The position numbers and the translations under genes are program-made. Shown piece by piece: positions 1-64,000 of a DNA stretch of 64,000 nt. Location of the stretch: the sequence record MZ779063.1, one strand, 5' to 3'. Position 1 is the first letter of the stretch. Each line of letters begins with the position of its first letter. The stretch is from Staphylococcus phage vB_SauM-UFV_DC4. The notes under the pieces were generated by a model, which saw nothing but the letters and a program-made list of their open reading frames with translations, was not told the origin of the DNA and ran no database searches.

Positions 1-1
1 A

Positions 2-220
2 TTGGAACTTTTATCACAAATTAGAGATCATTTTGATATAGAATTCTTTGTATCAGATTCTTGTTTCTCGCATATACCGGAGAATGATAAAAGAGATAAT
101 GATGATATAGATGATAGATACTATAATTTATTTGACGAATATAAAATATCTGGAGTATTTGAAGAGATTATGGATGAAAAGATTATTAAAAAATATTTAG
201 TGAAAAATAATTTTAAATAG
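2..220 (+). CDS. C-terminal end of a hypothetical protein, truncated by the window edge; member of a tandem paralog family with a conserved C-terminus (FEEIxDEKIIKKYLVKNNFK)
   Basis: The C-terminal 20 aa are nearly identical to those of ORFs 236..1030 and 1044..1880; same strand, tightly spaced. Confidence 0.5.
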   Translation: MELLSQIRDHFDIEFFVSDSCFSHIPENDKRDNDDIDDRYYNLFDEYKISGVFEEIMDEKIIKKYLVKNNFK

Positions 221-235
221 AAGGAGATCAATATA

Positions 236-1030
236 ATGGGTGTAATTAAAAGTGATAAAAAATATTTCTTATGTAAAATAAATGATGAATTATTTGAAGT
301 TGATAAAAATCATAGAGATTCATTTTTATATGACTATTTACCTTTAATAATAGCTGAAAAAATAATTAATTCGACTGAAAAAGATTCATATGAAACTAGA
401 GCAATGGATGTTTATTATAAAAAAGAAGATAATGTAATTGAAGGTAATTTAAAATTTTTAGCAAGATGTTTACTTCCTGTCCTGTATAATTTCAATAATA
501 AAAATTCATTTAAAACCGTTATGACTCTCGCAAATTTTAAATTTAAAAGGGATGCTAATAAATCTACTTTTAGTATAGATAAAAATAGTGTTAATGATAA
601 AATACTATTTCAAATGAGACCTTTAGGAAATGAAATTGATGATATTTTATTTAATAGTATTATAAGTGACCTTTTGAACGAAGATGACGAAATAGAAATG
701 AAACAAATGTTATTAGTTGGTAATTTTGAAAAATTATTAAACGAAATTGATAGTCAAAATATAAAACATCATGATGATTTTAAAATTTTAATCAAAGATA
801 TATTCAATATTTATCTTAATTTATTAAAATCCTTAAGACATCATCTTAATATTGAATTTTTCTTTTCTGAATCTTCTTTTCTAGACACGTTAAATGTTTA
901 TAATTTTGATATTATTAATAAAGATAGTTATAAAATAAATATTTTTGAAGATGATTTAGATGGAATATTTGAAGAAATTACCGATGAAAAATTTGTTAGA
1001 GAATATTTAGTGAAAAATAATTTTAAATAA
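236..1030 (+). CDS. Hypothetical protein, paralog family A
   Basis: ATG preceded by AAGGAG; internal region HLNIEFFFSESSFL and C-terminus EEITDEKFVREYLVKNNFK mirror the neighbouring ORFs. Confidence 0.6.
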   Translation: MGVIKSDKKYFLCKINDELFEVDKNHRDSFLYDYLPLIIAEKIINSTEKDSYETRAMDVYYKKEDNVIEGNLKFLARCLLPVLYNFNNKNSFKTVMTLANFKFKRDANKSTFSIDKNSVNDKILFQMRPLGNEIDDILFNSIISDLLNEDDEIEMKQMLLVGNFEKLLNEIDSQNIKHHDDFKILIKDIFNIYLNLLKSLRHHLNIEFFFSESSFLDTLNVYNFDIINKDSYKINIFEDDLDGIFEEITDEKFVREYLVKNNFK

Positions 1031-1043
1031 AGGAGTTAATATA

Positions 1044-1880
1044 ATGAGTGATGTATATTATGAATATAAATTGAGAAATAAAATATTTAAGTTTAATGAT
1101 GAAATTGAAGATTTAAGCGATACCGGTATTAAGAACTTTATAACATATGAAAATAATATTTTAAGCAATTTATTGACAAATATATTAATTGATCATACTG
1201 TCTATGGTTTTATACCGAATATATCCTATGAAGAAAATAAAAATGATGGTGTTGATAAAGAATATGTAAAAAAGGTAAATTTAAGTATTTTAAAACATTT
1301 ACCCTTAGTATCATACAGTGTAGGTAATTCAAATATATTAAATGATTTTTCTTTAAATGTCAATTCTGTTGTTGATATTTATAAAAAAGGAAATTTCGAA
1401 GATGAAGAAGGCAATAAAATGATTATACCTAAAGAAAATTTTAAATTGGAGACAAATATAAATATTGATAATTTAGGTGGAAAAATCGATCATGAATTAT
1501 TTAATAAAATATGTGGAGATATTTTTGATCAAGACGAGAATTTTTTATTTTATAAAATGTATGATCATATATTAGAGGAAAATTCTATGTCACTATATGA
1601 GAATATAGGAAATATAAATAATAAATTGGTTTATGAAATTATACTCCGTTTAAATAATAATATTTTATCATTATTTGAAAAAATCAGAAGTCATTTAGAC
1701 GTGAGATTTTATTTAAGAGATAAAGACTTTTATCTTTTCAGTAATGGAGAAATAGACAAAGATTCATTAAGTGACGAATATATTGAAATATCTGAATTTT
1801 TAGGAAAATCATCTTTATTTAAAAAGATTACAGATGAGAAGATTATTAAAAATTATGAAATAAAAGAAAACTTCAAATAA
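1044..1880 (+). CDS. Hypothetical protein, paralog family A
   Basis: AAGGAG RBS; SHLDVRFYL... and C-terminal KITDEKIIKNYEIKENFK resemble ORFs 2..220 and 236..1030. Confidence 0.6.
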   Translation: MSDVYYEYKLRNKIFKFNDEIEDLSDTGIKNFITYENNILSNLLTNILIDHTVYGFIPNISYEENKNDGVDKEYVKKVNLSILKHLPLVSYSVGNSNILNDFSLNVNSVVDIYKKGNFEDEEGNKMIIPKENFKLETNINIDNLGGKIDHELFNKICGDIFDQDENFLFYKMYDHILEENSMSLYENIGNINNKLVYEIILRLNNNILSLFEKIRSHLDVRFYLRDKDFYLFSNGEIDKDSLSDEYIEISEFLGKSSLFKKITDEKIIKNYEIKENFK

Positions 1881-1936: not shown

Positions 1937-4672
1937 ATGAAGATTAAAAGATTAAAGTTAAAGAATTTTATCGGTATTTATGCTGGTATGGGATTAAAAG
2001 AAGTTGAAATTGATTTTAGTAAAAGTAAAAATAATATGATTATGCTTCTTGGAGATAACGCTTCAGGTAAGACGACAGTTATGTCTAATCTTAATCCATA
2101 TAGAGAAACTAATGATCAACGTAAAACTATAGTATTAGAAGATGAAAAAGGTATAAAAGAGATTGATTATATTAAGGGTAATGATGTTTATGAAATTAAA
2201 CATCATTATGGTAAAAACAGTTCTCAAAATAAATCATTCATTAAGAAAAATGGTGAAGAACTTAATGAAAATGGTGGTATTAAATTATTCAATGAAATAG
2301 TAGATAAAGAATTAGGTGTATCTAAAGAATACTTTACTGTAGGTCGTTTAGGTGATAACGTATCAAACTTCATTGACTATACTACAGGTGATCGTAAATC
2401 ATATATCAATAAATTTGTACCTAATATTGATAGATACTTAGAAGCTTATAAAGTAGCTAATGAGAAATTAAAAATTATTACTAAAGATTTAAAATCACTT
2501 AGATTTGATTTAGACAAATATAAAGAATTTGATGAAATCAAAAAAGAAAAAGAGAATTTAGAAACTTTAATTGATCAATTACAAAATGAACTTGATGAAG
2601 CTAATAAAGATAAAACAACTCATGAAACTAAAATGAATTCTATCATGGAAGATAAGTACAAAGAGATTCATCCAACTGAATATAAAAATCAATTAATTAA
2701 TGAAATTAATGAACTTAATCAAGAATTAGAAAAAGAAAGAAAGTTAAAAGAAGATAATGAGAATTTAAATAAATATACTATTGAATCCGCTAATGAGAAA
2801 AAAGATAAAATAGATACTATATTAAATAATACTAATAATGAGTTGACTTCTGTTGAGAAAGATAAAGAGAATAATCAAGATAAATTAGATGATTTAATCA
2901 GTAGAAAATCTAAAATAGAATCTCGTATGAATGCTATCAAATTTAATGAAGATTATGATGCTTCTGATGAAATTGATTCAATTCTTGAAGGATATAAAGA
3001 AGATTTAGAAGGTATTAAAGATGATGTAGATATTTCTAGAGGGTCTTTTGTAAGTGAATTCGGTTTACAAATTAAAGATAATATTAAAGAGGATTCATTA
3101 AGATTATATGTAAATGATTTAATTTCTAAGGTAGATAATTTTAAAGAATTTATTAATGATAATGAATTTAAATATGGTTCTATTCGTGGAGATTTTGAAA
3201 GTGAAATTAAAGATAATAATGAAAAAATTTCTATGAACCAGAATGAATTTAATGAAATTAATACTAAGCTTAATCAAATTAAAGGTAAATCAGACTTATT
3301 AAAAATATTAGATCAAAAAGATCATGAACACTATAATGAATGTGTATTTGTTCCTTTAGTAGCTGACTTTAAAGATAATGAATTTGATTCAATTTCTGAA
3401 TTAGAAAATAAAGGTAATCAACTTTATAAAGATAATCAAGAATTAGAAAAAGATAATAGATTATTATCTAATCATATTGATTTATTACGTAAATTTAATG
3501 ACATACTTAATAGCAGAAATGGTTTAATTGAATATATTGGTTTTGAAATGATTGATATTGATAGTATTGAAGAAATATTTACTAATGGTAATACATTCTC
3601 TAGTGAACTAAATAGACTTAATTCATTAATTGAAAAGACAAATGAAATTCGTACTAATGAAACTAATAGAGATAAATTGACTATTGAATTAGAGAGAAAA
3701 GAAAATGCTCTTAAAGAAGATTATTCTAATAAGAAAATATTAGATCAATATAAAGAAGATAAAGAAGATTTAGTTAAACAAATTGAAGAAATTAAAAATA
3801 AAAATAATGAAATTTCTGAGAATCTTAATTATCTTAATGGTCGTAAAGAAAAAGCAATTACTAACTTAAATATTATTAATGAATTTATTAATCTAACAGA
3901 GAGATCTGAAGAAATTAAATTAAAAATGAAAGATAAAAATGATATAGTTGATGACATTGATAAGGATCTTTCAAAATTAAGTAATTTATATGAACTTAAT
4001 CAAAAAGCAGACAATAAGATTCAATCTATTAAAGATAATTTAACTATGAAGAAAAATGATTTAGAATCTACTAAAGAAAAATACTTTGCAGTTAATTCTA
4101 TTATTACTAAGATTGATGAAATTGAATCAGTGTTATGGAAATATAATATGGTGGTAGACTCATTAAATCCTAAGAAAGACTCTATACCATTAATATTCAT
4201 TACTAATTATCTTAAAGATATTGCAGTAAGTACTAATGAATTACTTTCAGTTGCTTATAATAATTCATTTAAAATTGACTTTGACTTAACAGATAAAGAT
4301 TTCTTTATTAATGTGTATAAAGGTAATGGAACTGAACTTAAGGATATTAAAGAAGCTTCTCAAGGAGAAACAGCTTTAACTAATATTAGTTTATCATTAT
4401 CATTATTAAACAAAGTATCTCAAGATTATAATATTCTATACTTAGATGAAATGGATTCAACATTAGATTCTAATAATAGAAGAAGATTTGTTGATGTGAT
4501 TGACAGACAAATTGAATTAATGGGTCTAGAGCAAGTATTCTTAATTAGTCATAATGATGAATTTTATAGTGCTAATATTGACTTAATTTTACTTAAAGGA
4601 TATGAAAGTAAAATTGACATTAATAATGAAGAAATGATGCAAGGTAAAAATGTATTATTTAAAGTAAACTAA
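1937..4672 (+). CDS. SbcC/Rad50-like (T4 gp46-like) SMC-family recombination/repair ATPase
   Basis: N-terminal Walker A LLGDNASGKTT right after a KLKNFIGIY start typical of Rad50/SbcC. About 700 aa of coiled-coil-like K/E/N-rich sequence. C-terminal signature SQGETALTNISLSLSL, then Walker B/D-loop ILYLDEMDSTLD and FLISHN. Confidence 0.8.
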   Translation: MKIKRLKLKNFIGIYAGMGLKEVEIDFSKSKNNMIMLLGDNASGKTTVMSNLNPYRETNDQRKTIVLEDEKGIKEIDYIKGNDVYEIKHHYGKNSSQNKSFIKKNGEELNENGGIKLFNEIVDKELGVSKEYFTVGRLGDNVSNFIDYTTGDRKSYINKFVPNIDRYLEAYKVANEKLKIITKDLKSLRFDLDKYKEFDEIKKEKENLETLIDQLQNELDEANKDKTTHETKMNSIMEDKYKEIHPTEYKNQLINEINELNQELEKERKLKEDNENLNKYTIESANEKKDKIDTILNNTNNELTSVEKDKENNQDKLDDLISRKSKIESRMNAIKFNEDYDASDEIDSILEGYKEDLEGIKDDVDISRGSFVSEFGLQIKDNIKEDSLRLYVNDLISKVDNFKEFINDNEFKYGSIRGDFESEIKDNNEKISMNQNEFNEINTKLNQIKGKSDLLKILDQKDHEHYNECVFVPLVADFKDNEFDSISELENKGNQLYKDNQELEKDNRLLSNHIDLLRKFNDILNSRNGLIEYIGFEMIDIDSIEEIFTNGNTFSSELNRLNSLIEKTNEIRTNETNRDKLTIELERKENALKEDYSNKKILDQYKEDKEDLVKQIEEIKNKNNEISENLNYLNGRKEKAITNLNIINEFINLTERSEEIKLKMKDKNDIVDDIDKDLSKLSNLYELNQKADNKIQSIKDNLTMKKNDLESTKEKYFAVNSIITKIDEIESVLWKYNMVVDSLNPKKDSIPLIFITNYLKDIAVSTNELLSVAYNNSFKIDFDLTDKDFFINVYKGNGTELKDIKEASQGETALTNISLSLSLLNKVSQDYNILYLDEMDSTLDSNNRRRFVDVIDRQIELMGLEQVFLISHNDEFYSANIDLILLKGYESKIDINNEEMMQGKNVLFKVN

Positions 4673-5288: not shown

Positions 5289-7010
5289 ATGGGTAGATTT
5301 ATTAAATCAACATATTTAAATAAAAAAGAGACACATTCAGGAAAAGAAAAAGTAGTAATGGTAGTTAAAGAAGAAGACGGTAATAAAAAACATATGGAAA
5401 TAACTGATCCAATGATGCATTATTATGTAACTAAAGATGAACATTGGTTACCACCTAATAAAATTGTAGGTTCTATTGAAAAAGATAAAGTAAGAACTGT
5501 TACTTGTAAGCATAAAGATATTATCAAATCAGTAGTTAAAGAAGCTGGTAATGCTCAAGATAAAGCAGAATATGATAGAATTATGAAATCAGGTAATTGG
5601 CAAGAATATAGAAAATTAAAAGATTTTCATTTATTAAATAATGCTCATGGATCTGATATTAATATAGAAGATTATAATATTAATGAGTATATTAAAAAGA
5701 ATTTAGATAGTAAAGTCGGTATAGATATATGTCTATTCGATATTGAGGTTGATGGTTCTCAAGTAACAGGCTTCCCAGATCCTGAAAAAGCTGAAGCAGA
5801 GATAAATATTATAACTGTAGTGGATTGGAGTAAGAAAAAAGTATTAACATTCGCTCTTAAATATGACACTGATACTTATAGAGAAACTATGAAAGATCAA
5901 GATAAGTTAATTAAAGACTTAAATGAAATCTATAATAATGAAAATAGTGAAATTGGTAAAGATTTAGGTTTAGAATTTGAAATATATGAATTAGATACAG
6001 AAATGCAAGTAATTAAATCTTTCTTATACTATATTAATGAAATTAGTAAACCTGATATATGTACAGCATGGAATCTAGATTATGACTTCCCTGCAATATT
6101 TGAACGTATTAGAGCTAATGGAGAAGATCCTGCAGATTATTTCTGTTCTAAAGAATTTGAAGATAAAAAAGCATATTATAAATTAGATAAAAATGCTACT
6201 GATATGGCTAATAGATCTTCTACATTTGAGACTAATTCTTATACTAACTGGATTGACCAATTAGCTTTATATGCAAATATTAATAAACCTAATGGTGCTT
6301 TGGAATCAGTTAAGTTAAATGATATTGGAGAAAAAGAAGCGAGAGTTACTAAAGATGTTTATGAAGGTTCTATCTCTGATTTACATTTTAGAGATTATTA
6401 CACATTTATACTTTATAATATTAAAGATACTGTATTAGCTGCATTAATTGAACATAACACTAATATGTTTGATTTATTATTCTCTATTGTAGATATGACT
6501 AGAACAAGACCTAGTAAAGCACTTAAGAAAACTATTTGTTTAAGAAATCGTAGTTCAGTATTCTTTGAAAATCAAGGATATGTATTAAGTAATAACCACT
6601 CAAAATTATTATCAGATCCGAATGCAGATAAAATTCGTGGTGGATTTGTAGCAGATATGATGTTAATTGAACGTAATGGTGATACATTAGTTAAAGGTAG
6701 AGATATTAGATCTAATAGATTATTTAGTAATGTTTGTGACTTTGACTTGAGTGCTCTATACCCATCTATTATTAGAGCATATAATATAACACCTGAAGGA
6801 CATGTGGGTAAAATGAATATTCTTGATAAAGATAGAATAACAGTGCCTAAGTATGAGGAAGATAAAGATAACTATGATTTTAATACTGAATTCGTAAGTA
6901 AGTTTAACAGTCAAGATAGTGTTGCTTTTGCTCAAGAATTTCATGGTTTACCTCCTCTTATTAAAGCATCTGATGACATTATTAAAGAATTAGAGGAGGA
7001 AATTGGTTAA
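5289..7010 (+). CDS. Family B DNA polymerase, N-terminal part (3'-5' exonuclease domain through polymerase motif A); the ORF stops shortly after motif A
   Basis: Exo I LFDIEVDG, Exo II TAWNLDYDFPAIFER, Exo III YNIKDTVLAALIEH, polymerase motif A DFDLSALYPSIIRAYNITPEG; no motif B (KxxxNSxYG) or motif C (YGDTDS) before the stop. Confidence 0.8.
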   Translation: MGRFIKSTYLNKKETHSGKEKVVMVVKEEDGNKKHMEITDPMMHYYVTKDEHWLPPNKIVGSIEKDKVRTVTCKHKDIIKSVVKEAGNAQDKAEYDRIMKSGNWQEYRKLKDFHLLNNAHGSDINIEDYNINEYIKKNLDSKVGIDICLFDIEVDGSQVTGFPDPEKAEAEINIITVVDWSKKKVLTFALKYDTDTYRETMKDQDKLIKDLNEIYNNENSEIGKDLGLEFEIYELDTEMQVIKSFLYYINEISKPDICTAWNLDYDFPAIFERIRANGEDPADYFCSKEFEDKKAYYKLDKNATDMANRSSTFETNSYTNWIDQLALYANINKPNGALESVKLNDIGEKEARVTKDVYEGSISDLHFRDYYTFILYNIKDTVLAALIEHNTNMFDLLFSIVDMTRTRPSKALKKTICLRNRSSVFFENQGYVLSNNHSKLLSDPNADKIRGGFVADMMLIERNGDTLVKGRDIRSNRLFSNVCDFDLSALYPSIIRAYNITPEGHVGKMNILDKDRITVPKYEEDKDNYDFNTEFVSKFNSQDSVAFAQEFHGLPPLIKASDDIIKELEEEIG

Positions 7011-7835: not shown

Positions 7836-10298
7836 TTGAAAAGGAGTGTTTTGAATTTGGCTGATGAGAATAAAACTCAGAGAAGTATAAATAATCTCAA
7901 CAGAGATATGGTCAGAGGATTAGGCGATGAAGAAAATCCTAAGAACTTATCTGACAATATAAATGATTTTGATGATAGACTAAAAAAGATAAGACGTAAA
8001 AGTAATCATGGTAATAGTAATGGTGATATTCTATCTTTAGCATCTAAAGTAAACGGTAAAAGTAGAAATGTTAGAAAATCTAATACCGGTGATGATAAAA
8101 AAGATTTCATTAAAGATTTTATAGAAGAGAATATTGAAAATCAAGATTTTTCATCTGAAATTGCTAGAGTATCTAGATACGATGACTATAGAATTATAGA
8201 TAAATTTATACCTGAAATATCAACAAGTATTGATGTATTCGCTACTTCTATTATTGCACCTGATGATACTTCTAAATTATCATTGATGTATCGTTATGGT
8301 GATACAAATAATAAAGATGAATCAGAAAATAAAGAAGTTTTAAATGAATTAGATAGAATTGTAAAGAAATATAATTTGGACAATTTGACATATACTTCTA
8401 TTCGTGATGGTTTATTATTAGGTGATGTATTCTATATTATTAAAGATACTAAGTCTGATTTTGAAGAAATACTTAATGAAAATGATGACGTATTAGGAAG
8501 AGAAACACGAGATGAACAAAAAGTAATTAATGAATCATTTATTGACCAGAATCTTAAAGAATCTGATTTAGACACTATAATTAATGAATTTAATAATCAA
8601 TTTGAAAAGCCTATTAAAGATGAAGATCAATTAAATGAACAGAGAACTAATTTTAAAAATGAAATATTAAAGAGTATTAATGAGAATGTAGCTTTCTTTG
8701 AAAATTCTTCTGAATTACTCTCTGATATAGGTAAATACAAAGGTTCTAATGACTTACAATCATTTTTAAATAAAGCAGATAACAAAAATAAATCTAGTAA
8801 ATTAAAATCTGGTTCAGTTTATTTTAGATCCGTAGAACCCGAAGACATGATTAAATTAGAAATTGATGGTATGTGTATTGGTTATCTTTATATTGAACCT
8901 GATTCTGGAACTGATTTAAGAGGAGGAGCTAATCCTTTATTATCTGCTATGAATAATTTAATGGGAGATGGATACCAGAAGCAAGGTCAAACAGGATCAC
9001 CTTCAGGTGGTATGGGAATTACTAACTTAGATCCTGTTACTGGTGGCGTTGCAGGAAATAATATGTCTAGTAATTCTAAAAATCCTAATTCAGGAATGAA
9101 TGCTACATCTGGATCATATTATGAAAATGGAAATACTGTTATGGCATATCAAGGTTTAGTTGATGTTATAGTTAAAGGTATATCTCAAAAGATTAATATG
9201 GACTTCATTAATAAAAATGATTCATTTAAAGATATCATATATAGATTAATCCGTAAGAATTATATTATTGAAAATGGTATTAAAATGACTTTCTTAGAAG
9301 CTGATGAAGTGTTTCATCATAAATTAGACAGTCAAAAAACTTATGGAGTTTCTAAACTTAATAAATCATTATTCTTTGCTAAATTATATTTAAGTACTTT
9401 AATAACTACAATGATGGTTAAATTAAATCAATCAAGAGATAGACGTGTATTTAGAGTTAATGCAGGTTTAGATGATGATTATGAAGGAACTGTAGAAGAA
9501 ATAATTCGTAATGTGAGACAAAACGAAATGTCTACAGGATTATTTGGTGACGGAACTTCAGTTCAAACATTATTCAATCAAGTAGGTAACTTAGAAAACA
9601 TGTACATTCCTCAAAATAAAGAAGGTACTTCACCTTTAGAAATAGATACAATCTCTGGTATTCAAGTTGATATTAATGATGAGTTCTTAGAATGGCTTAA
9701 GAAATCAGTTATATCAGGTACAGGAGTTCCTTTAAACTATATTGATGCTGAAACTGAAACTGATTACGCACGTTCATTATCAATGCAGAATAATAACTTT
9801 GTCAGACGTGTAGTTAATTATCAAAAATCTTTCGGTGAATTTTATACTGAAGTATTAAGAAAACTTTATTATTTAGAAAATGTAAGTAAAAATAAAAAAG
9901 AAAATGAAGAATTAAGTAATAGAATACAAGAAATTGAAGCATACTTCCCAGCACCAGTATTCTTAAACTTAGGAAACCTTAATGAAGAAGTTGGAGCCGT
10001 TACGCAAATGATAGACTTCTTAGTTCCTTTATATACTTCAGAAGCTTCTGGTGACGAAGAAGAAGATGATAACGAAAAACTAAAACGTCTATTCCGTAAA
10101 GAATTAGTTCAACAAGAATTCATGTCTAATTTAGATTACGATAGATATGAAGATATTATTAACAATATTAAAGATGAAATAAATAAAGATAAAAGAAAAA
10201 ATGACATGGTAAATAATAATAATACTGATGAAGACGATTTATCTTCTTCAGATGACTCTGAAAATAATTCAAGCGATAATTTTGAGGATGATTTCTAA
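7836..10298 (+). CDS. Large hypothetical protein with a Gly/Ser/Asn-rich internal linker and a strongly acidic C-terminal tail; the true start is probably TTG at 7851 after AAGGAG
   Basis: Long ORF; low-complexity segment GGANPLLSAMNNLMGDGYQKQGQTGSPSGGMGITNLDPVTGGVAGNN; C-terminus DEDDLSSSDDSENNSSDNFEDDF. Confidence 0.5.
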   Translation: MKRSVLNLADENKTQRSINNLNRDMVRGLGDEENPKNLSDNINDFDDRLKKIRRKSNHGNSNGDILSLASKVNGKSRNVRKSNTGDDKKDFIKDFIEENIENQDFSSEIARVSRYDDYRIIDKFIPEISTSIDVFATSIIAPDDTSKLSLMYRYGDTNNKDESENKEVLNELDRIVKKYNLDNLTYTSIRDGLLLGDVFYIIKDTKSDFEEILNENDDVLGRETRDEQKVINESFIDQNLKESDLDTIINEFNNQFEKPIKDEDQLNEQRTNFKNEILKSINENVAFFENSSELLSDIGKYKGSNDLQSFLNKADNKNKSSKLKSGSVYFRSVEPEDMIKLEIDGMCIGYLYIEPDSGTDLRGGANPLLSAMNNLMGDGYQKQGQTGSPSGGMGITNLDPVTGGVAGNNMSSNSKNPNSGMNATSGSYYENGNTVMAYQGLVDVIVKGISQKINMDFINKNDSFKDIIYRLIRKNYIIENGIKMTFLEADEVFHHKLDSQKTYGVSKLNKSLFFAKLYLSTLITTMMVKLNQSRDRRVFRVNAGLDDDYEGTVEEIIRNVRQNEMSTGLFGDGTSVQTLFNQVGNLENMYIPQNKEGTSPLEIDTISGIQVDINDEFLEWLKKSVISGTGVPLNYIDAETETDYARSLSMQNNNFVRRVVNYQKSFGEFYTEVLRKLYYLENVSKNKKENEELSNRIQEIEAYFPAPVFLNLGNLNEEVGAVTQMIDFLVPLYTSEASGDEEEDDNEKLKRLFRKELVQQEFMSNLDYDRYEDIINNIKDEINKDKRKNDMVNNNNTDEDDLSSSDDSENNSSDNFEDDF

Positions 10299-12386: not shown

Positions 12387-12677
12387 ATGGAAAATGTACC
12401 AGAATATAGTTTATTAGGGATATATAATTTTAATTATGATAAAGAGAAATTAATAATGTCTATAATAAAAAATTGTCATATTGTCTTTAACACTATTAAT
12501 GAGGATGGAGAAAGAGATATTTATTTATTATCTGATTTAGAAATTAGTGAGGATGGTATATTTTCTTTTGTATTAACTAAAGATGATTTACCGGTATCAG
12601 TTCATAATTTTTCAATTAAAGAGGTATATGATTTTGATGAACTTAATAAATTGATAATGAAAGAAATTAATTCTTAA
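12387..12677 (+). CDS. Small acidic protein; candidate uracil-DNA glycosylase inhibitor (Ugi)-like DNA mimic (speculative)
   Basis: 96 aa, AGGAGG RBS, acidic; segment ERDIYLLSDLEISEDGIFSFVLTKDD loosely resembles PBS2 Ugi ESDILVHTAYDESTDENVMLLTSD. Confidence 0.5.
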   Translation: MENVPEYSLLGIYNFNYDKEKLIMSIIKNCHIVFNTINEDGERDIYLLSDLEISEDGIFSFVLTKDDLPVSVHNFSIKEVYDFDELNKLIMKEINS

Positions 12678-40880: not shown

Positions 40881-40896
40881 TTATACATAGTTTTAA

Positions 40897-40925: not shown

Positions 40926-40961
40926 TCTCAAATACTTTTATAATATGGAGATGAAAAAGAT

Positions 40962-46631: not shown

Positions 46632-47186
46632 ATGGCAACTAAAATAGATTTTAATAATGAAGACGATTATAATGATGTATTAAATATAAACGATTGGAAT
46701 AGACTATGTATGGACTTCTGTATTAGATCTGCTAGTATTAGTAAATGTGCTGCTAAACAAGTCAGCTCAATTGTAGCTGATAAAGATTCTATATTTTCTC
46801 TTGGAGTAAATGGTTCTTTTCCGGGTAAACTAAATTGTAATGAAATATTTAAAAAAGAAGATGGAATTTGGTATGTAAAAGATCTTAATGAAGAAACTAA
46901 TTTAATTGAATGGGTTAAATGCGAAGATCAAGAACAGCATCATAAATGGTCTTTATTAAATGAAGTTCATGCTGAAATAAATGCTTTATCTAAAATGAAT
47001 AAAAAAGGTATTTCTACTGAAGGACTAGACTTATATTGTACTCACTCACCATGTTATAATTGTGCTAAAAGTATAATTGCTGCTGGAATTAAAAATGTCT
47101 ATTTTAATGAATTATATGATGGTTATGAAGATGTTATGGAATTATTAGTTTCAAATAATGTTAACTTCATTAAAGTGGAGGTCTAG
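46632..47186 (+). CDS. dCMP (deoxycytidylate) deaminase / cytidine-deaminase-fold zinc enzyme
   Basis: Zinc-binding signature HAEINAL...(28 aa)...SPCYNCAKSIIAAGIKNVYF (H-A-E ... P-C-x-x-C). Confidence 0.7.
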   Translation: MATKIDFNNEDDYNDVLNINDWNRLCMDFCIRSASISKCAAKQVSSIVADKDSIFSLGVNGSFPGKLNCNEIFKKEDGIWYVKDLNEETNLIEWVKCEDQEQHHKWSLLNEVHAEINALSKMNKKGISTEGLDLYCTHSPCYNCAKSIIAAGIKNVYFNELYDGYEDVMELLVSNNVNFIKVEV

Positions 47187-48924: not shown

Positions 48925-49485
48925 TTAATTCTTAACAAAGTTATGTTTCATTAATGTCTTAATAAATTCTTTATTAGTTAACCAATCTCCAGTATTATTA
49001 ACTACTTCAAGATCAGTTACTTCATCTAAATCTTTCTTTTCTTTCTCTAAATCTTCTTTATTTCTTCCTTCACGTTTAACTTGATTCTTTTCATTAACTA
49101 CTTGAATAGTAATAATGTCAGAATCTTCACCATATTTCTCTTTAATATCTCTTACAGAAGCATCTCTACCTTCTCTATTTACAATAATAATATTTACATT
49201 ATAAATACCATTTTGCGGATATTCTAAACTTTGATCAATTGTACCGTAATAATTTTCATAGAAATTAGTCTTAGCTATTAAATTACCTTTCATACCATCA
49301 TATTCTTCTTTATTTAAGAATACATAATCTACGCCATTTTTCTCATCTTCTCTTTGCTTTCTAGTAGTTACTTGATCTAATTTTTTAAAGAATAAATGCG
49401 GATATTCCTTTTGATCTGATAAATTATTTGCCAATACAGTTTTTCCTGAACCTGATACACCACATAATAAGATAAATTTTTTCAT
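48925..49485 (-). CDS. Guanylate-kinase-family nucleotide (d)NMP kinase
   Basis: P-loop LCGVSGSGKTVL, then VTTRKQREDEKNGVDYVFLNKEEY, matching the guanylate-kinase S/TTR...G.DY.F...EF signature. Confidence 0.65.
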   Translation of the reverse strand: MKKFILLCGVSGSGKTVLANNLSDQKEYPHLFFKKLDQVTTRKQREDEKNGVDYVFLNKEEYDGMKGNLIAKTNFYENYYGTIDQSLEYPQNGIYNVNIIIVNREGRDASVRDIKEKYGEDSDIITIQVVNEKNQVKREGRNKEDLEKEKKDLDEVTDLEVVNNTGDWLTNKEFIKTLMKHNFVKN

Positions 49486-53036: not shown

Positions 53037-54779
53037 ATGTTAGATAAGAATAAAGAAAAGAAGAAATTAGTTTCAAATATTGTAGATGAAGATTCATATA
53101 AAGATATAGCTGAATTAACTATTGATACTATTTCAAATACGTTAATGAAATCATTAGGTTATTTCGGATCTACAACTATTTTTGATGATGGTATTAGTAG
53201 ATATGTAACTAAAGACGGTTATAATATCCTAAAAAATATTAGATTTCAAGATACAATCGCTACAGCTATTTTGAATTTTATTAAAGAAGTATCGTTATCA
53301 CTAGTTAAATCAGTGGGAGATGGATCAACTTCATCAGTAATTAACTCACAAGCTATGTTTAAAGAAATTAATAAAAGACTAAAAGAAAAAGATGATTTAG
53401 GTGGATATTCTCGTAAAGAAATTTCTGATTCATTAAATAATATGAAAGAATTAATTTCTAAAGAATTAACTTCAAAATCTACTAAAATTGATCAAGATAA
53501 TTTCCATAAATTAAAAAATATCGCTACAGTATCTAATAACAATGATGAAAAATTAGGAGAAATGGTTTATGAAATTTTCTCTAAAATTGGTAATAAAGGT
53601 TTTATATTCCCTGAAGTTTCTGATAATGAAGAAGACCATTATTCATTAACTAGAGGTATTGAAACACCACATGCATTATTAGATAATAAATTAATTAATA
53701 ATAAAGATGACCATTCAGTTGATTTTAGTAAACCTTATGTAGTTGTTGTTAATGATAAACTAACTGAAGAAGATATTGTATGGACATCAAATATTATTTC
53801 TAAAGTTAAACCGTTCTCAGGACAAGGATTAATATTCTTTGCTCCAGCTTTTTCTAAAGAGTTTAAAGATTATATTAAAAATAATTTACATGCTAATAGA
53901 AATAATGGTTCATTACAAGCAGTTGAAACTGACTTTGAATTATCTATTGGTTCTCATTATCATGATCCAGAAAAATTAGAAGATTTAGCTATATATACAG
54001 GTGGATCTATTATTGATAAAACTATGGAAAAAGAAGATTTCTATAAACAAGTTGAGTCTATTGTAGAACTTCCTGAAAATGACCCAGAATGGTTATTATT
54101 TAAAGAAACTGTAATTGGTAGAGCTGAAAGAATTACTATTGATAATTTTAAAACACAAATTATTAATGGTTATGGTAATGGTACTCAAAAACTTAAAGAT
54201 AGAATTTCAGAAATTAATAATGAGATAACTTATTATACTGATATGAATTCAGATCAAGCTATTACAGCTATTACTGATTTACAAAAACGAGCAAATTCTT
54301 TAAATAATGCTATTGCTAAATTATACGTTGGTGGTTCTTCTCAAGCAGAAAAAACTTCTAGACTATACTTAGTAGAGGATTCAGTGCATGCTTCTAAATC
54401 TGCTTTAGAATACGGTTATGTATCTGGAGGTAACTTATCAGTAAATAAAGTTATTAAAAATATCAATAGAGACGTTTTAAGTGATTTAGATAATCTAACA
54501 TTAGATTTAATTGATATATCTTCAAGAGAAGTTTATCATAAAGTATTAGAAAACTTTAATAGATTTAGTTCGGGAGAAATTGAATCTATCACTCAAACTT
54601 GTATAGATAAAGATGCTATATTGAATATTAAAAATAATGAATATGAAGATGATGTTAATACAGATATTATCAACTCAGTAGAGACAGATATTAAAATATT
54701 AGAAACAACTATTAGTATTATAGGATTGATTTCACTAAGTAACCAATTCTTAACTAATTCAGTCATTATTCCACAATAA
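53037..54779 (+). CDS. Hypothetical protein
   Basis: 580-aa ORF. Confidence 0.5.
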   Translation: MLDKNKEKKKLVSNIVDEDSYKDIAELTIDTISNTLMKSLGYFGSTTIFDDGISRYVTKDGYNILKNIRFQDTIATAILNFIKEVSLSLVKSVGDGSTSSVINSQAMFKEINKRLKEKDDLGGYSRKEISDSLNNMKELISKELTSKSTKIDQDNFHKLKNIATVSNNNDEKLGEMVYEIFSKIGNKGFIFPEVSDNEEDHYSLTRGIETPHALLDNKLINNKDDHSVDFSKPYVVVVNDKLTEEDIVWTSNIISKVKPFSGQGLIFFAPAFSKEFKDYIKNNLHANRNNGSLQAVETDFELSIGSHYHDPEKLEDLAIYTGGSIIDKTMEKEDFYKQVESIVELPENDPEWLLFKETVIGRAERITIDNFKTQIINGYGNGTQKLKDRISEINNEITYYTDMNSDQAITAITDLQKRANSLNNAIAKLYVGGSSQAEKTSRLYLVEDSVHASKSALEYGYVSGGNLSVNKVIKNINRDVLSDLDNLTLDLIDISSREVYHKVLENFNRFSSGEIESITQTCIDKDAILNIKNNEYEDDVNTDIINSVETDIKILETTISIIGLISLSNQFLTNSVIIPQ

Positions 54780-54948: not shown

Positions 54949-55722
54949 TTGACTAATTTTACAGCTTCTCAATTTCTCAAAAACCCTACAGGAAAAGGTT
55001 CAGCTACAGTAGCTAGACGTGATAGAATCATATTAGATATGAGAACTAGATTCTCTTATCTTTATAAAAAGAATAGAAAGAGCTTTAAATTAAAGATATT
55101 CTTATATCAAGATAAGTACTATTTCTATTTCCAAATACCTTCAGAAGACTATTTTAAAGAGAATTTATCTTATGATGTTATTATTGAATTTAGACCACCT
55201 AATGAAAGAGCAGCTAAAGCAAAAGATCTTAATAATTACTTAATAAGATTTATTAGTAATTCACCTAACTTTATGTTTACATATGGTTATCTATATAATA
55301 AAGATGATTTACTAATAAGTTGGTTAAGTTATAAATTAGGACCTAAAGCTTTAAATCAACCTCCAGAAGTTAGAAACCCTAGACTTGAATACGGTTTTGA
55401 GAAATCAGTTTATTTTGCACTTTTGTATTTAGAGACTAACCCTAAAGCATTAAAAAATCCGCTTCATTTGACATTACCTAACAGACAAAGAATTAAAAGT
55501 TCTTTCAAATCTTCAGAATTAAAATTACGTGAATACAATAAGATTAAAAAACAGAAAAATGCTTCTAAGAAAAACTCATCAGGTATTAAAAGACAAATAA
55601 GTAATCGTGTCGATAAAAGAAATGAAGAAAAGAAAAGAGTAACTAAACCTATTAATAGAAAAGTTAAATCTATAGGTAAAGTTAAAAAAGTTAAGAAGAC
55701 TAACTCTACAAAACGAAAATGA
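54949..55722 (+). CDS. Hypothetical protein with a very basic Lys/Arg-rich C-terminal tail (nucleic-acid-binding-like)
   Basis: C-terminal 70 aa KKQKNASKKNSSGIKRQISNRVDKRNEEKKRVTKPINRKVKSIGKVKKVKKTNSTKRK. Confidence 0.5.
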   Translation: MTNFTASQFLKNPTGKGSATVARRDRIILDMRTRFSYLYKKNRKSFKLKIFLYQDKYYFYFQIPSEDYFKENLSYDVIIEFRPPNERAAKAKDLNNYLIRFISNSPNFMFTYGYLYNKDDLLISWLSYKLGPKALNQPPEVRNPRLEYGFEKSVYFALLYLETNPKALKNPLHLTLPNRQRIKSSFKSSELKLREYNKIKKQKNASKKNSSGIKRQISNRVDKRNEEKKRVTKPINRKVKSIGKVKKVKKTNSTKRK

Positions 55723-55798: not shown

Positions 55799-57532
55799 TT
55801 GGATAAAGTTAAAGAATTAGAGTACAAAGAGGATTTAGATTTAAAAAAGATTGATGAATTAGTTAATAATGACGTGGAAGTACCCCTATTATCTAGTAAT
55901 GTCAATAAGCTTAAAAGAGTCTCTGGTAATTTTGAATTAACTAATGAATACATTAATTCTAAAGACTTAGATACACTTGAAAGAAAAAATAAAAATGGTA
56001 AAATTGAATTGGAGTACATACAGAGAACAGATATTCTACCATTAGTTAAATTTATTGAAAGTGAAAAGAATGATACTATATTTATAGATTTCAATAAAAT
56101 ATTAGAAACTGATAATCGTAAAGTACCTAAGGATGAAGAGTTTGATAATATATTTACTATTCAAATTAAACAAAGATCTTACAAGAGTATTTTAGATTAT
56201 ATTGTAAATGATATGAATTTTATAGTTAATGAGATTCCTCACATAATGATTAAAGGTGCTACTATATTAAGTAAGATAGCTAAATTAAGAGAGAATTATA
56301 AAGAAGAAGATTTCTTCAGAGATATTCAGAATATTATTGAAGATGAAGATTTAAGAAATGTTATTAGAAATATTGTTGATAATAACTATACAATTAATTT
56401 AGATCAAACTAATGCTGAAGCTATGTTACAAAGTAAGAAAGTTATTAAGAGAGATTTACAAGTAACTGACCAAGTAAATAAATCATTCTTATCTACAGCT
56501 GTAATGCAAAGATTTATTATTCCGTTTATTAGTCAATATTATGTAACTACTAATAAGTATCATTGTGAAAATTCTGATGCAGATAAAGAAAGAACTAAAA
56601 ATGGTTACTTTAAAGCATTTAATTATTGTATGTGTATTTCTTCATTCGATTATAATGTAAGTAATAATAATAAACTTTATAAAATTGTAGAACCTAAAGT
56701 AATCAAAACAAAATACAATGATAGAGTTATTTGGAGATTCTTAGATTTACGTTCAATTGACCCTGACACTGTTATTAATAAAATAATGGATAAAATCATT
56801 AGACAAATTGTATGTAAATTATTAGTAGATACTTCTGCAGTATCTTACTTTACGTCTGTTATTAAATTCTCAATCGATTATGAATTCCAGTACAAATATC
56901 CAATTAAGTTTAGATCAATACGTCTATCTACAGATGATGACGATGATGAAGATAGCTTCGATAAATTCCAAATGAATAACTTCCATAAAGTTAATGAACG
57001 TTTAGATTTAGCTAATAAAATCACTATTGATAGATTTATTAATGAACGTTTAGAAGAATTAAATATTAGTGATGATTACATTAATCGTTTATATGATAAA
57101 TTTGATTATATTAATGACTTACAATCTCATTTAATTAAAGTTTATTTTGCTGAATACTTTAACGTTAATACAAATGATAGAAAGAGCATTGTTTCATTAC
57201 TAGCTATTATGTCTAAAGAACTTATTGACAATAATATGGAAACTTTAGGAAAAATAGTGGCAAGTAAAGTTGTTTCAGGTACAAAAGCTAAAAATGTAGG
57301 TAAATTATCATTAGACGTAATTGCAGATAAATATTATATTGCTGCTTGGGATAAATATAGATTTATCAATGATATTACTGAAAAAGATAACTTTATCTTA
57401 CGTATAGCATTAGTAAATGGATATTCATTTAACTTCACTCCTGAAGATAAAGAAGAAGATGAAGAAGTTATTGCTGATATTGATAAGAAATACTTTATCT
57501 CTGAAGTATCACAATTTATTTCTCAATACTAA
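55799..57532 (+). CDS. Hypothetical protein (TTG start)
   Basis: 577-aa ORF, AAGGAGAG RBS. Confidence 0.5.
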   Translation: MDKVKELEYKEDLDLKKIDELVNNDVEVPLLSSNVNKLKRVSGNFELTNEYINSKDLDTLERKNKNGKIELEYIQRTDILPLVKFIESEKNDTIFIDFNKILETDNRKVPKDEEFDNIFTIQIKQRSYKSILDYIVNDMNFIVNEIPHIMIKGATILSKIAKLRENYKEEDFFRDIQNIIEDEDLRNVIRNIVDNNYTINLDQTNAEAMLQSKKVIKRDLQVTDQVNKSFLSTAVMQRFIIPFISQYYVTTNKYHCENSDADKERTKNGYFKAFNYCMCISSFDYNVSNNNKLYKIVEPKVIKTKYNDRVIWRFLDLRSIDPDTVINKIMDKIIRQIVCKLLVDTSAVSYFTSVIKFSIDYEFQYKYPIKFRSIRLSTDDDDDEDSFDKFQMNNFHKVNERLDLANKITIDRFINERLEELNISDDYINRLYDKFDYINDLQSHLIKVYFAEYFNVNTNDRKSIVSLLAIMSKELIDNNMETLGKIVASKVVSGTKAKNVGKLSLDVIADKYYIAAWDKYRFINDITEKDNFILRIALVNGYSFNFTPEDKEEDEEVIADIDKKYFISEVSQFISQY

Positions 57533-58887: not shown

Positions 58888-60162
58888 TTGATAGAAAGCT
58901 TGATTACTAAAAAAATATTTAATATAAAATTAATAGCATTGTATTCAGATGGAACTACTGATGATTTATCTCAATTCATTAAAAGATCTAGGATAGAAAT
59001 GAACTTCCAAGAATATATTATGCCATACTATAGATTTATATTAAGATTACCTAAAGAAACTATAATTAAGATTAATAAAGATAGAGACAAAGTAGTATTT
59101 TCTTTTGCTTCAGATATGATTACTACTGATGCTGAAAGTGAAAGTTTATCTGTCCCCTTTTATGAAGAAATAATATTAAAACCGTTAATGGATTTAAGCA
59201 ATCCAGTTAATTATGATGATAGAGTGACTAGAACTGATGAAGATCAAAAACATTTATTTGATAGATATGAATTAGTTGCTATATCTGAAGAAACGTTAAA
59301 AACTAATAAACCTATAGTTTCAGGTATCTATAATAACTGTACTGTCAGTGAAGTAGTCACTGATTTATTAAGTAATTTAAAAAATAGAGAAATATATTTA
59401 CACGAGATAGATAATAACAAGATATATGAACAGATTATCTTACTTCCTGCAAACGTATATGACAATATAAAATTTATTGATGACGTATACGGTATATATA
59501 ATAGGGAAATTAAGATGTTTAACCATGAAACAGGATTAAATATTTTACCAATGTCTGGATTTGATCCTAATGAGATAGGTAAAGTTAAAGTAGAAATAAG
59601 ATTTCCATCAAATCAAACTGATGAAGAAATCATAGAAGGATCTTATGAACAAATATCTGAGGAAGATGACTTAGTTAGAAATAAAAATATAGTAACGAGA
59701 ATTAATAATGTATCTCTAGTAGATAATACAAGATTATTTAATGAATTAATCGGTTCAGAAATTAATTTATTTGGAATGGATAATGAAAGCGAATATACTA
59801 AATTAAACACATATCGTAGAGATATGGAAGATAGAAATGGACCTATTAATAAAGTAAAAGTATATGATGATATTTATGATAACCCTTATAGTCTAGAAAA
59901 AGAGTTTAACAATAGTAAAGATATAATATTAAAGATACAATTAAATGATATTGATTTAACTATGGAAGATACTTTTAAGCAATTTGATATAGAGTTCTTT
60001 AATGAATATTATAAACACTATAACGGTTTTTATGAATTATTATCTATTAATCAAGAATATAAAACAGCTAGTAAAGCTTTAGTCTTATCAAACTATGTTA
60101 CATTAAGAAAGATAACTGATCATACATTTATTAAGAATGATAAAAATAATCCCAATACCTAA
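58888..60162 (+). CDS. Hypothetical protein
   Basis: 424-aa ORF; the stop codon is embedded in the CCCAATACCT hairpin. Confidence 0.5.
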   Translation: MIESLITKKIFNIKLIALYSDGTTDDLSQFIKRSRIEMNFQEYIMPYYRFILRLPKETIIKINKDRDKVVFSFASDMITTDAESESLSVPFYEEIILKPLMDLSNPVNYDDRVTRTDEDQKHLFDRYELVAISEETLKTNKPIVSGIYNNCTVSEVVTDLLSNLKNREIYLHEIDNNKIYEQIILLPANVYDNIKFIDDVYGIYNREIKMFNHETGLNILPMSGFDPNEIGKVKVEIRFPSNQTDEEIIEGSYEQISEEDDLVRNKNIVTRINNVSLVDNTRLFNELIGSEINLFGMDNESEYTKLNTYRRDMEDRNGPINKVKVYDDIYDNPYSLEKEFNNSKDIILKIQLNDIDLTMEDTFKQFDIEFFNEYYKHYNGFYELLSINQEYKTASKALVLSNYVTLRKITDHTFIKNDKNNPNT

Positions 60163-61806: not shown

Positions 61807-61850
61807 TATATAATTTCCTCCATTTATTTTATAATTTAAATTTTTTAATA

Positions 61851-62882
61851 TCAGAAACTAATATTAAAATCAGTTTCTAATTCTTTTCCTATTTCTGCAT
61901 CTATTTGTTCTGATTCTGATTTACCTTGAACTTCAGCTACCCCAGAATCAATATCAATTTTATCAGCTAATTTATTTAAACGTTCAGTAGCTTTATTTTG
62001 TTTCTCACGTGATCTATCTGATAAATCATTATTTTGTTCACCTTCAATGATTTTAACAGCTTCACGTAAATATTCAGCTATATCTGAACGAGTTTTAATT
62101 ACTTTAATATAAGCTTGTTTTGTTAAATATAAAGCTAGCATAGAACCTGCAATAGCCATTATAGAAATGCTGCCGTATTTAATAGTTTTTTCTGACATTT
62201 TTAAGTATTTATTATCTTTAGCTTTTTTAGCTAAATCTACTATATCATCAAAACTAAATTCTTCATTAGCACTTACAAAAGAGCCATCAAATTTAAAAAT
62301 TTCTTTAAGCTTTCCTGCTTTATACATTTTTAAAACATTTTCCAAAGTATTTACTTCTAAAGAATTTTTATTTTTAAGTTTTTTACCATCAAATTGTAAT
62401 TTACCATCTTCATTACTAAATCCTAAGAAGAATAATTGTGAAGTTAATAACATAACTGTTGATGCTAAAGTAGTATAAACGATTTGACCAACTTCATTAC
62501 CATTATTAAAACATTTTTTAAAGTTATTTTTTTCTTTTTCAAGTAAGTTTACAGAATTCTCAATAGTATCAAAAACGGAAATAAGTTTAGGGTCAAAGCT
62601 ATTAGATTTTTGACTTTTTATGTATTTAAAAGTCTTTTCAAAATCTTTATAAGCTTTAACCTTTTTAAAATCGCCTTTACTAGAAAGGATCGATTTTAAA
62701 TTTTTATTTCCAGATTTTTTCAACATTTTTTCAGATGTTTTAGAGATTGCAACCGAAAGAGCTTCCATTTTTTCTTCTGGTTCTAATCTTTTAAAAGGTC
62801 TGAATGGTAAAGAGAATTCCTGTAAAACTCTTTGTGTAATTGCATCTTCAGTTAGAAGATGTTTTCTTTCAAGAAGTTCCAC
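61851..62882 (-). CDS. Hypothetical protein with a transmembrane segment
   Basis: Hydrophobic helices IVYTTLASTVMLLTSQLFFLGF and YGSISIMAIAGSMLALYL. Confidence 0.5.
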   Translation of the reverse strand: MELLERKHLLTEDAITQRVLQEFSLPFRPFKRLEPEEKMEALSVAISKTSEKMLKKSGNKNLKSILSSKGDFKKVKAYKDFEKTFKYIKSQKSNSFDPKLISVFDTIENSVNLLEKEKNNFKKCFNNGNEVGQIVYTTLASTVMLLTSQLFFLGFSNEDGKLQFDGKKLKNKNSLEVNTLENVLKMYKAGKLKEIFKFDGSFVSANEEFSFDDIVDLAKKAKDNKYLKMSEKTIKYGSISIMAIAGSMLALYLTKQAYIKVIKTRSDIAEYLREAVKIIEGEQNNDLSDRSREKQNKATERLNKLADKIDIDSGVAEVQGKSESEQIDAEIGKELETDFNISF

Positions 62883-63059
62883 AGGGAATCTCCACTTCCT
62901 TTCTAGGAGTTAATCCAAATATAATAAAATAATAAATGAAACCTACACGCTAATATAAATTTTCATTTTATATTTTATAAATTTTTGTTCTAAATATAAT
63001 TTCATTAATTTATTCAAATTAAGAAATATATCTTATTATATAATAACTGTTTCTATTAA

Positions 63060-63923
63060 TTAACGTTTTAATAATTTTTCAAGCATTTCTGAAGTTAAAT
63101 CTTTTTGATTATTCTTAACTTTGTAAGCACCAAGTTTACTTTCTTTAATAACTTCAAATTTGTTATGATCTGGTAAATATTTATAAACTAATTCTCTAGT
63201 TTGATCTAAGATAATAAAGTCTAATAAGAAGAATTCATTGTAAATTTTCTTAGCAGCTCTACGGTCAGATAGTAAATCAACACCAGTTTTACGTTTAACT
63301 TCATTAGCTTCATCGATAGTAATCATTAAAGCTGTTGTTGGAATATAGTTGGCTTTAGCTGACTTAGCAATTCCTGAAGCTTTATTAACTGAATAAAGAG
63401 AATTTAATTTATTCCAGATAGTTCCAGAACGTCCTTTTTTAGAGTCTTGAGCTATTTTCTTAACTTTCTCAGAATCTAATAATAAATCTCTTACTAAACG
63501 TAATTCACCTGTAGTAAATTTAACTAGTTTAGTTACTAAGTTTGAACCACGAGATTTATCAGAAAGATAGAAAATGATGTCTTCCGTTTTAACAACATGA
63601 ACAACTGTCTTAACACCGAATTTAGTATCCTTCTGAATATAATTTGAAGCTGGAAGAGGATTACCGTTTTTATCTGCAGGTACATAGTTAATTGTAGTTG
63701 TTATCGTAGTAGGTAAAGAAGCATTTATTTTTTCTTTATCTATAGTAACTTTTGCTCCAAAATTATCTCTTTCTGTATCTTTAATAGTAGTAGTAACTTG
63801 ACCTTTATAGTTTTCACTGAATTTTCTTTTTAATTCAGAATTTTTTTCTATAGTGTCACCATTAATTGATTTTAATCTACCGTCAAATACTGAATTTATA
63901 TTTCTATTAGAACTTTCTGACAT
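63060..63923 (-). CDS. Hypothetical protein
   Basis: 287-aa ORF. Confidence 0.5.
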   Translation of the reverse strand: MSESSNRNINSVFDGRLKSINGDTIEKNSELKRKFSENYKGQVTTTIKDTERDNFGAKVTIDKEKINASLPTTITTTINYVPADKNGNPLPASNYIQKDTKFGVKTVVHVVKTEDIIFYLSDKSRGSNLVTKLVKFTTGELRLVRDLLLDSEKVKKIAQDSKKGRSGTIWNKLNSLYSVNKASGIAKSAKANYIPTTALMITIDEANEVKRKTGVDLLSDRRAAKKIYNEFFLLDFIILDQTRELVYKYLPDHNKFEVIKESKLGAYKVKNNQKDLTSEMLEKLLKR

Positions 63924-64000
63924 ATTATTAAATTTAAATTCTTTCCCTTTACCATCTTTAACTTCAAGTATTTCTAAATTATAAGTTTTATTTGTATTCT

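Follow-up and report, generated by a model that had tools for sequence, protein, structure and literature searches.

An AR9-like jumbo phage of staphylococci: a 64-kb stretch of vB_SauM-UFV_DC4 with AR9-type RNA polymerases, two staphylococcal-type lysins and a predicted uracil-DNA scheme

To which phage group and to which host does a stretch of 64,000 nucleotides from sequence record MZ779063.1 (Staphylococcus phage vB_SauM-UFV_DC4) point, and would the DNA of this phage carry uracil in place of thymine? A sequence-only reading of this stretch, which we call the window at its full length, had taken it for a jumbo phage of the AR9/PBS1 type that has its own multisubunit RNA polymerases (RNAPs) and a staphylococcal host. 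For the comparison at the nucleotide level, the window was cut in three thirds and searched by megablast against about 50,700 phage records. Long collinear matches were obtained with staphylococcal jumbo phages only. Nine such relatives were detected at the DNA level, every one isolated on staphylococci: S6, PALS_2, MarsHill, Madawaska and LY01 showed 90–98% nucleotide identity in these matches and 95–98% across the window, and SA1, Machias, PB50 and AH12 about 80–85%. No record among those searched by megablast was identical to the window. When the window was aligned by blastn with the 75–140 kb region of S6 (LC680885), the two were collinear across all 64 kb at 95–98% nucleotide identity, with a handful of insertions and deletions. 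The GC content was 21.7–30.7% per 4 kb along the window, and the extreme AT richness described earlier was thus found again. Since the window is collinear with S6 over its full length and its GC content is 22–31%, it represents roughly one fourth of the genome of an isolate from a phage lineage that has been described before; the genomes of the close relatives measure 259–274 kb and the window 64 kb. A prophage or host origin was dismissed, the window being collinear with lytic jumbo phages throughout. Altogether, with a probability of roughly 93%, the phage is a lytic jumbo myovirus of Staphylococcus that belongs to the lineage of S6, PALS_2 and MarsHill, the branch of the AR9/PBS1 group that infects staphylococci, and has an AR9-type RNAP and uracil-DNA (U-DNA) scheme; the window covers about one quarter of its genome. 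The nine staphylococcal relatives and the AR9 homologs presented below bear out the sequence-only reading in its main lines, and all the open reading frames (ORFs) that it had listed were found in place.

The host is indicated by two lysins. The gene at 21361..22158 (-) encodes a lysin with CHAP and SH3_5 domains (Pfam) that matches the endolysin structures 8h1i and 8xyf over its full length, and the gene at 22324..23274 (-) a lysin with Amidase_2 and SH3_5 domains (Pfam). In both, the SH3b part matches the domains by which lysostaphin and ALE-1 are targeted to the wall. With these Pfam domains and the lysostaphin/ALE-1-type SH3b, the proposal that the phage has staphylococcal-type lysins, in which CHAP and amidase_2 domains are combined with SH3_5, was well founded. 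In their CHAP, Amidase_2 and SH3_5 modules, the two proteins are like the LysK/phi11-type endolysins. However, LysK/phi11-type endolysins are single CHAP-Amidase_2-SH3_5 polypeptides, whereas in the window the modules are divided between two neighbouring genes, both of which have an SH3_5. The orthologs of SA1, lys210 and lys211, have been expressed and studied, and the two-gene arrangement has already been described (PMC9096886). The two SH3_5 modules (21361-21642 and 22324-22605) are nearly identical to each other, at about 87% of nucleotides and 85% of amino acids, which implies that the wall-binding module was recently duplicated or underwent gene conversion. Lysis would thus be achieved by two staphylococcus-adapted lysins, as if the classic CHAP/Amidase_2/SH3b endolysin had been split in two proteins, each with a pentaglycine-type SH3b.

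One may ask whether the window could instead stem from an AR9-like phage of Bacillus or of other Firmicutes, or from a chimeric assembly, with lysin genes that were merely acquired from staphylococcal phages. No AR9 homolog of either lysin was found by tblastn, AR9 having unrelated, Bacillus-type endolysins, and the amidase lysin gene (22324..23274) resembles endolysin genes of S. haemolyticus siphophages (72–75% in nucleotides), which would both fit such an acquisition. Nevertheless, the collinearity with S6 is not confined to the lysin region, since it covers all 64 kb at 95–98% nucleotide identity, and the lysin orthologs of S6, Madawaska and SA1 occupy the corresponding position (PMC9096886). 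A Bacillus or chimeric origin is therefore scarcely credible. For a staphylococcal member of the AR9/PBS1 group, the lysins would derive from genes of staphylococcal phages and their hosts and not from the AR9-like ancestor.

The relationship to AR9 was studied by tblastn of 50 window ORFs against the AR9 genome. AR9 homologs were detected for 27 of the 50, at 25–53% identity, and among them are genes for parts of two RNAPs. As in AR9, PBS1 and PBS2 (Takahashivirus), the window specifies two multisubunit RNAPs with split subunits, together with a gp226-like specificity subunit that has the U-selective valine. The C-terminal half of the beta-prime subunit of the non-virion RNAP (nvRNAP) is encoded at 10399..12312 (+), as indicated by the Pfam domain RNA_pol_Rpb1_5 and by a match to chain 7s00_D of AR9 nvRNAP in the PDB (E=4.6e-82). 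The gene at 55799..57532 (+) encodes a homolog of AR9 gp226, the sigma-like promoter-specificity subunit of nvRNAP (PDB 7s01_A, E=3.2e-40), and residues V310-I311-W312 of the window protein were aligned with V206-I207-W208 of gp226. In AR9, V206 of gp226 sterically excludes the methyl group of thymine at promoter position -10, and this residue was reported to be the same in all U-DNA jumbo phages (PMC9209446). With its conserved valine, the protein from 55799..57532 speaks for U-DNA more directly than any other sequence feature of the window. This gene, the strongest marker of U-DNA in the window, was absent from the list on which the sequence-only reading was built.

The window also encodes parts of the virion RNAP (vRNAP). 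A module of its beta subunit, 1417 amino acids long, is encoded at 30429..34682 (-) by a homolog of the six-exon AR9 vRNAP beta gene, with which it was aligned by tblastn at amino acids 3–1413. The protein is 99.6% identical to S6_1000, and its translation contains the beta motifs RHADSPRIGMTGTQAKH, GDK and SPLSIVSRMT. It had been presented as a split RNAP beta. This holds insofar as the beta subunit is divided over separate genes, of which this one specifies a module and that for the beta-N partner falls outside the window, but the gene itself is uninterrupted. In this it differs from the AR9 gene with its six exons, being intronless, and the Madawaska gene is annotated with exon junctions and has about 165 extra nucleotides. 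When the vRNAP beta was used in tblastn to look beyond the staphylococcal clade, relatives were found in the Listeria phage LPJP1 (41%), the Bacillus phages AR9, PBS1 and BpSp (45%, over the C-terminal 70% of the protein) and the Yersinia phage phiR1-37 (35%). The beta-prime subunit of vRNAP is represented by the gene at 35143..36369 (+), 46% identical to the AR9 vRNAP piece at 220773–221978. Since it was aligned to approximately residues 660–900 of bacterial beta-prime, this protein is better described as a middle piece than as a C-terminal one, and its ortholog in Madawaska is annotated as 'mid-domain'. The two beta-prime pieces had been regarded as C-terminal paralogs. They do overlap weakly as paralogs (E=3e-6), and the product of 10399..12312 is a C-terminal half; in contrast, that of 35143..36369 is the middle segment of a three-part virion beta-prime. 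The phage affinities expected for these RNAP fragments were thus found, the nvRNAP pieces matching the AR9 chains 7s00_D and 7s01_A and the vRNAP beta and beta-prime pieces matching AR9.

The promoter motifs of AR9/PBS1/PBS2, early and late, are likewise present in the window. A position weight matrix based on the AR9 annotation, with 34 early promoters (consensus AAATATATATTATA), gave 9 sites in the window, compared with 0.33 in Markov controls. Eight of the 9 sites immediately precede an ORF in the right orientation, and among these ORFs are both nvRNAP genes and three genes for homing-endonuclease-like proteins. These near-perfect AAATATATATTATA promoters are located at 10334, 16732, 36429, 38849, 40889, 43743 and 55723 (+) and at 58780 (-); that of the nvRNAP beta-prime C-terminal gene (10399..12312) occupies 10334–10358, and that of the specificity subunit gene (55799..57532) is the one at 55723. 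The late promoters of AR9 are marked on the non-template strand by AACA-N6-TA (PMC9209446). We counted 11 occurrences of this motif in the 100 nucleotides upstream of the 50 ORFs, whereas shuffled sequences gave 2.9±1.7 and the antisense strand gave 2, and their distances to the start codons were 31–73 nucleotides. Among the genes preceded by the motif are both lysin genes, the vRNAP beta-prime gene and that for the head-tail joining protein, with a spacing of 42 nucleotides for 21361..22158, 48 nucleotides for 22324..23274 and 31 nucleotides for 35143..36369.

Because early- and late-promoter motifs are placed in this manner, the two-RNAP transcription scheme of AR9 appears to be conserved, and the timing of expression can be inferred from the homology, the conserved motifs and the promoter enrichment and placement that were observed. 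By homology to AR9/PBS1, an injected virion RNAP, to which the beta module (30429..34682) and the beta-prime middle piece (35143..36369) would belong, would transcribe the early genes from AAATATATATTATA-type promoters. These early genes would include those for subunits of the second, non-virion RNAP, namely the beta-prime C-terminal half (10399..12312) and the sigma-like subunit (55799..57532). The non-virion RNAP would then read the late promoters (AACA-N6-TA in the non-template strand) on the template strand, through a pocket predicted to admit uracil and not thymine. The late genes would in turn include the two lysins and the pieces of the virion RNAP.

We looked for further signs of U-DNA among the genes of nucleotide metabolism. 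The gene at 46632..47186 (+) encodes a two-zinc deoxycytidine-nucleotide deaminase (Pfam dCMP_cyt_deam_1, E=1.2e-16), an ortholog of PBS1/AR9 Dcd with 44% identity to the AR9 gene; among characterised proteins, PBS1 Dcd is its nearest relative. When the protein was mapped on T4 Cd with the residue list given in PMC12697855, the ligands of Zn1 (H113, C141 and C144) and of Zn2 (C39, C69, H103 and E111) were kept, as were the deoxycytidine contacts; the equivalents of C19, C49, H94, E102, H104, C132, C135, V24, N40, A105, E106 and P131 of T4 Cd are all conserved. In 2025, PBS1 Dcd was shown to be a dCTP deaminase, not a dCMP deaminase, and staphylococcal jumbo-phage proteins were named among its closest homologs (PMC12697855). 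The window protein had been called a dCMP deaminase. It is indeed a deaminase with an intact two-zinc architecture, but because it is orthologous to PBS1 Dcd (PMC12697855), it is most likely a dCTP deaminase, and 'dCMP deaminase' is to be taken as a label of the fold. The guanylate-kinase-like kinase recognized earlier was also recovered, at 48925..49485 (-) (Pfam Guanylate_kin, E=2.5e-11), with 31% identity to the AR9 'guanylate kinase'. In an alignment with PDB sequences, this kinase of guanylate-kinase fold keeps the P-loop and the TTRxxR motif and has an Ala where guanylate kinases have a Glu. This Glu contacts guanine in guanylate kinases. Its replacement by Ala is compatible with an altered specificity, possibly for dUMP. 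In the proposed scheme, the PBS1-Dcd-type deaminase (46632..47186) would supply dUTP for the genome, possibly assisted by the kinase (48925..49485).

Three other genes of the window belong to families that were reported solely from U-DNA phages (PMC10303552, Table 3). The first, at 42968..43651 (-), is of the phiR1-37 g278/g282 family (phrog_12252); it is 38% identical to AR9 207204–207908, and its Madawaska ortholog is QQO92814. The second, at 54949..55722 (+), is of the phiR1-37 g244/AR9 YP_009283131 family, with 42% identity to AR9 and the Madawaska ortholog QQO92829. The third, at 58888..60162 (+), is of the phiR1-37 g196 family, with an AR9 homolog at 186533–187723 and the Madawaska ortholog QQO92832.

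Several observations weigh against assigning an AR9-type RNAP and U-DNA scheme to this phage. A sequence file is blind to U versus T, and the presence of uracil in the DNA of the phage is inferred from its relatives and from conserved residues. The ORF at 30429..34682 had no match in Pfam, and its matches to beta subunits in the PDB were only marginal (plastid RpoB), so that its assignment as vRNAP beta leans on the AR9 homology and the motifs. Since AACA-N6-TA has just six specified bases, the individual late sites are uncertain and their support is statistical. No homolog of Ugi, SAUGI or p56, all inhibitors of uracil-DNA glycosylase (Ung), was found in the window, and no Ung inhibitor was found in S6, MarsHill, Madawaska, Machias, PALS_2, SA1, LPJP1 or phiR1-37 either, which was termed a paradox (PMC10303552); we take it as a known gap of this clade and not as a reason to place the phage outside the U-DNA group. 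Finally, no window ORF matched by tblastn the AR9 5'(3')-deoxyribonucleotidase gene (124342–125067), which corresponds to the dTMP phosphatase of PBS1/AR9; this search covered the 64 kb of the window, and some 200 kb of the genome lie outside it.

A relative of AR9 with ordinary thymine DNA, in whose lineage the U-DNA trait was lost, would account for a window with neither a recognisable Ung inhibitor nor a dTMP phosphatase, and would look the same in sequence data, where U and T are indistinguishable. However, such a phage would hardly be expected to conserve the thymine-excluding valine of the specificity subunit (PMC9209446), a Dcd ortholog with an intact active site and three families restricted to U-DNA phages (PMC10303552). 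Moreover, S6, to which the window is 96–98% identical in nucleotides, was reported to have its thymine fully replaced by uracil, and the DNA of MarsHill-type phages behaves like U-DNA, as inferred experimentally (10.1101/2020.12.14.422802; PMC8150378). We hold a loss of the trait to be extremely unlikely and retain the U-DNA scheme for this phage.

The lack of a known Ung inhibitor draws attention to a small acidic protein encoded at 12387..12677 (+), which the sequence-only reading had put forward as Ugi-like. It consists of 96 amino acids, 19 of them D or E and 8 K or R, with an isoelectric point (pI) of 4.3. This places it in the size and charge class of Ugi (84 amino acids, pI 4.1). Like Ugi (of PBS1, PBS2 and AR9), SAUGI and p56, it is small, acidic and probably expressed early: its gene follows the early promoter at 10334, with no terminator predicted in the block to which it belongs, and Ugi was assigned to the early gene products (PMC8150378). 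The small acidic protein is kept in all nine staphylococcal jumbo phages, and it belongs to a clade that has no known Ung inhibitor (PMC10303552), the inhibitor entry for S6 being given as '?' (PMC8150378). All this would suit an inhibitor of the Ugi type. In contrast, tblastn gave no match in AR9, Ugi included, and the Ugi homolog of AR9 is without counterpart in the window. No relevant match was obtained when the sequences of all PDB chains, with the deposited Ugi, SAUGI and p56 structures among them, were searched by phmmer or with a profile; hhalign against Ugi gave a probability of 0.2%, and the ESI motif of the first beta-strand, with which Ugi and SAUGI bind Ung, was not found. The AlphaFold2 model (predicted local distance difference test, pLDDT, 88.4; predicted template modelling score, pTM, 0.79) has an alpha-beta4-alpha topology, with a helix, four strands and a helix, and a search of BFVD returned only the protein's own ortholog. 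In a profile search of 1.84 billion representatives, the matches were mostly repetitive and likely of low complexity, with one plausible remote homolog, P0015, which is basic, not acidic; no functional lead was obtained from this search. PHROGs has no family for this protein nor for its 148-amino-acid neighbour. Thus, while small and acidic it is, no similarity to Ugi, SAUGI or p56 was detected in sequence, profile or predicted fold, the Ugi-like label does not hold, and we consider it very unlikely that this protein is an Ugi-type uracil-DNA glycosylase inhibitor.

What characterizes this protein is its variability within the clade. Its homologs were found in only nine staphylococcal jumbo phages of the phage collection and, in wider protein databases, in a few unnamed metagenome sequences. 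The window protein is a different allele from that of PALS_2, MarsHill, Madawaska and LY01, with 51–57% amino acid identity, whereas the flanking proteins are 93–100% identical. Across the clade, outside the S6 allele group, the identity is 46–58% for this protein and 81–100% for its neighbours, and at least five allele groups can be distinguished. Nucleotide identity falls from 96–98% to 60–80% at the ORF boundaries, the divergent segment being 12394-12693. Such a hypervariable cassette suggests allelic exchange or diversifying selection acting on an early protein. Sharply bounded hypervariability and a position behind an early promoter are what one might expect of a protein engaged with a host factor in an arms race. 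The protein might be the sought Ung inhibitor of staphylococcal U-DNA jumbo phages, with a new fold unrelated to Ugi, SAUGI and p56, although we regard this as decidedly unlikely; in a more modest version, it would be another fast-evolving inhibitor of a host defence or enzyme. With a relaxed filter, a 'heuristic match' was reported for a protein of S6 (PMC10303552). At present, we describe the product of 12387..12677 as a small acidic, clade-restricted hypervariable protein.

Other AR9-like genes are spread over the window. Beyond the RNAPs, it resembles AR9, PBS1 and PBS2 in having a Dcd-type deaminase, a guanylate-kinase-like protein, GroEL, SbcC, a helicase and homing endonucleases, and the AR9-homologous ORFs detected by tblastn also include an RNase H, an endonuclease and a baseplate protein. 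The SbcC/Rad50-like ATPase (1937..4672, +) is 35% identical to the AR9 SbcC ATPase over its full length. A piece of DNA polymerase B with the exonuclease and part of the catalytic domain is encoded at 5289..7010 (+), 38% identical to the AR9 piece at 108407–110071; the gene is uninterrupted in the window, and the Madawaska copy is about 150 nucleotides longer, with annotated exon junctions. A scan of the whole window with Rfam gave no family at gathering score, with no group I intron and no tRNA. The gene at 7836..10298 (+) encodes the portal vertex protein, a homolog of an AR9 virion protein that is named portal in the Madawaska and MarsHill annotations. An SF2 helicase (Pfam ResIII/DEAD/Helicase_C) with an AR9 homolog is found at 13209..14756 (+), and a GroEL-like chaperonin (Pfam Cpn60_TCP1), 35% identical to AR9 GroEL, at 53037..54779 (+).

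Compared with S6, with which the window shares the RNAP pieces, the deaminase, the kinase, GroEL, the two lysins and the small acidic ORF (93–94% amino acid identity), a few differences were observed. The most marked concerns a region with three free-standing genes in tandem (36508..38601, 38912..40363 and 40962..42914, all +; span 36508..42914), whose products belong to HNH/homing endonuclease families in PHROGs and are homologs of three AR9 homing endonucleases by tblastn. Each has its own AR9-type early promoter, at 36429, 38849 and 40889, respectively. The three paralogs lie directly downstream of the vRNAP beta-prime gene, and in AR9 a homing endonuclease gene likewise follows the orthologous gene. 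The number of such genes at the 36508-42914 locus is 3 in the window, 2 in S6 and 1 in Madawaska. The additional gene relative to S6 is part of a 1.56-kb homing-endonuclease cassette (38844–40400) that precisely takes the place of a 73-nucleotide tRNA-Asn gene. It contains the ORF at 38912..40363, the early promoter at 38849 and a terminator, and no close DNA match to it was found in the phage collection. The replaced tRNA-Asn exists in S6, PALS_2 and Madawaska, and by Rfam the window is left without a tRNA. ARAGORN proposed a tRNA-Phe(aaa) of 94 nucleotides at 20143–20236 (-); we take it as a probable false positive, lying inside a Big_2 ORF (19043..20713, -) and having no Rfam support. This ORF has one more Big_2 repeat than in S6. 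The window further contains an additional tandem paralog (1044..1880) of the preceding gene (236..1030), absent from S6; its last 65 nucleotides match the end of S6_0750. Finally, because of a 468-nucleotide in-frame deletion, the ORF at 29772..30332 (-) encodes 186 amino acids, compared with 343 in S6 and Madawaska; the missing segment is either dispensable or an insertion in the other phages.

The phage group to which the window belongs is already published, with S6 (2014), PALS_2, the trio MarsHill, Madawaska and Machias (2021), SA1 (2022) and DC4 (2023). The diagnosis made from the sequence was therefore right and, as it rediscovers a published group, brings no new biology. It is nonetheless a useful positive control, since both lifestyle and host were correctly inferred from raw sequence alone. 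For the clade, which is thought to carry U-DNA without a known Ung inhibitor, the protein encoded at 12387..12677 is a reasonable candidate to test, though the evidence speaks against its being Ugi-like.

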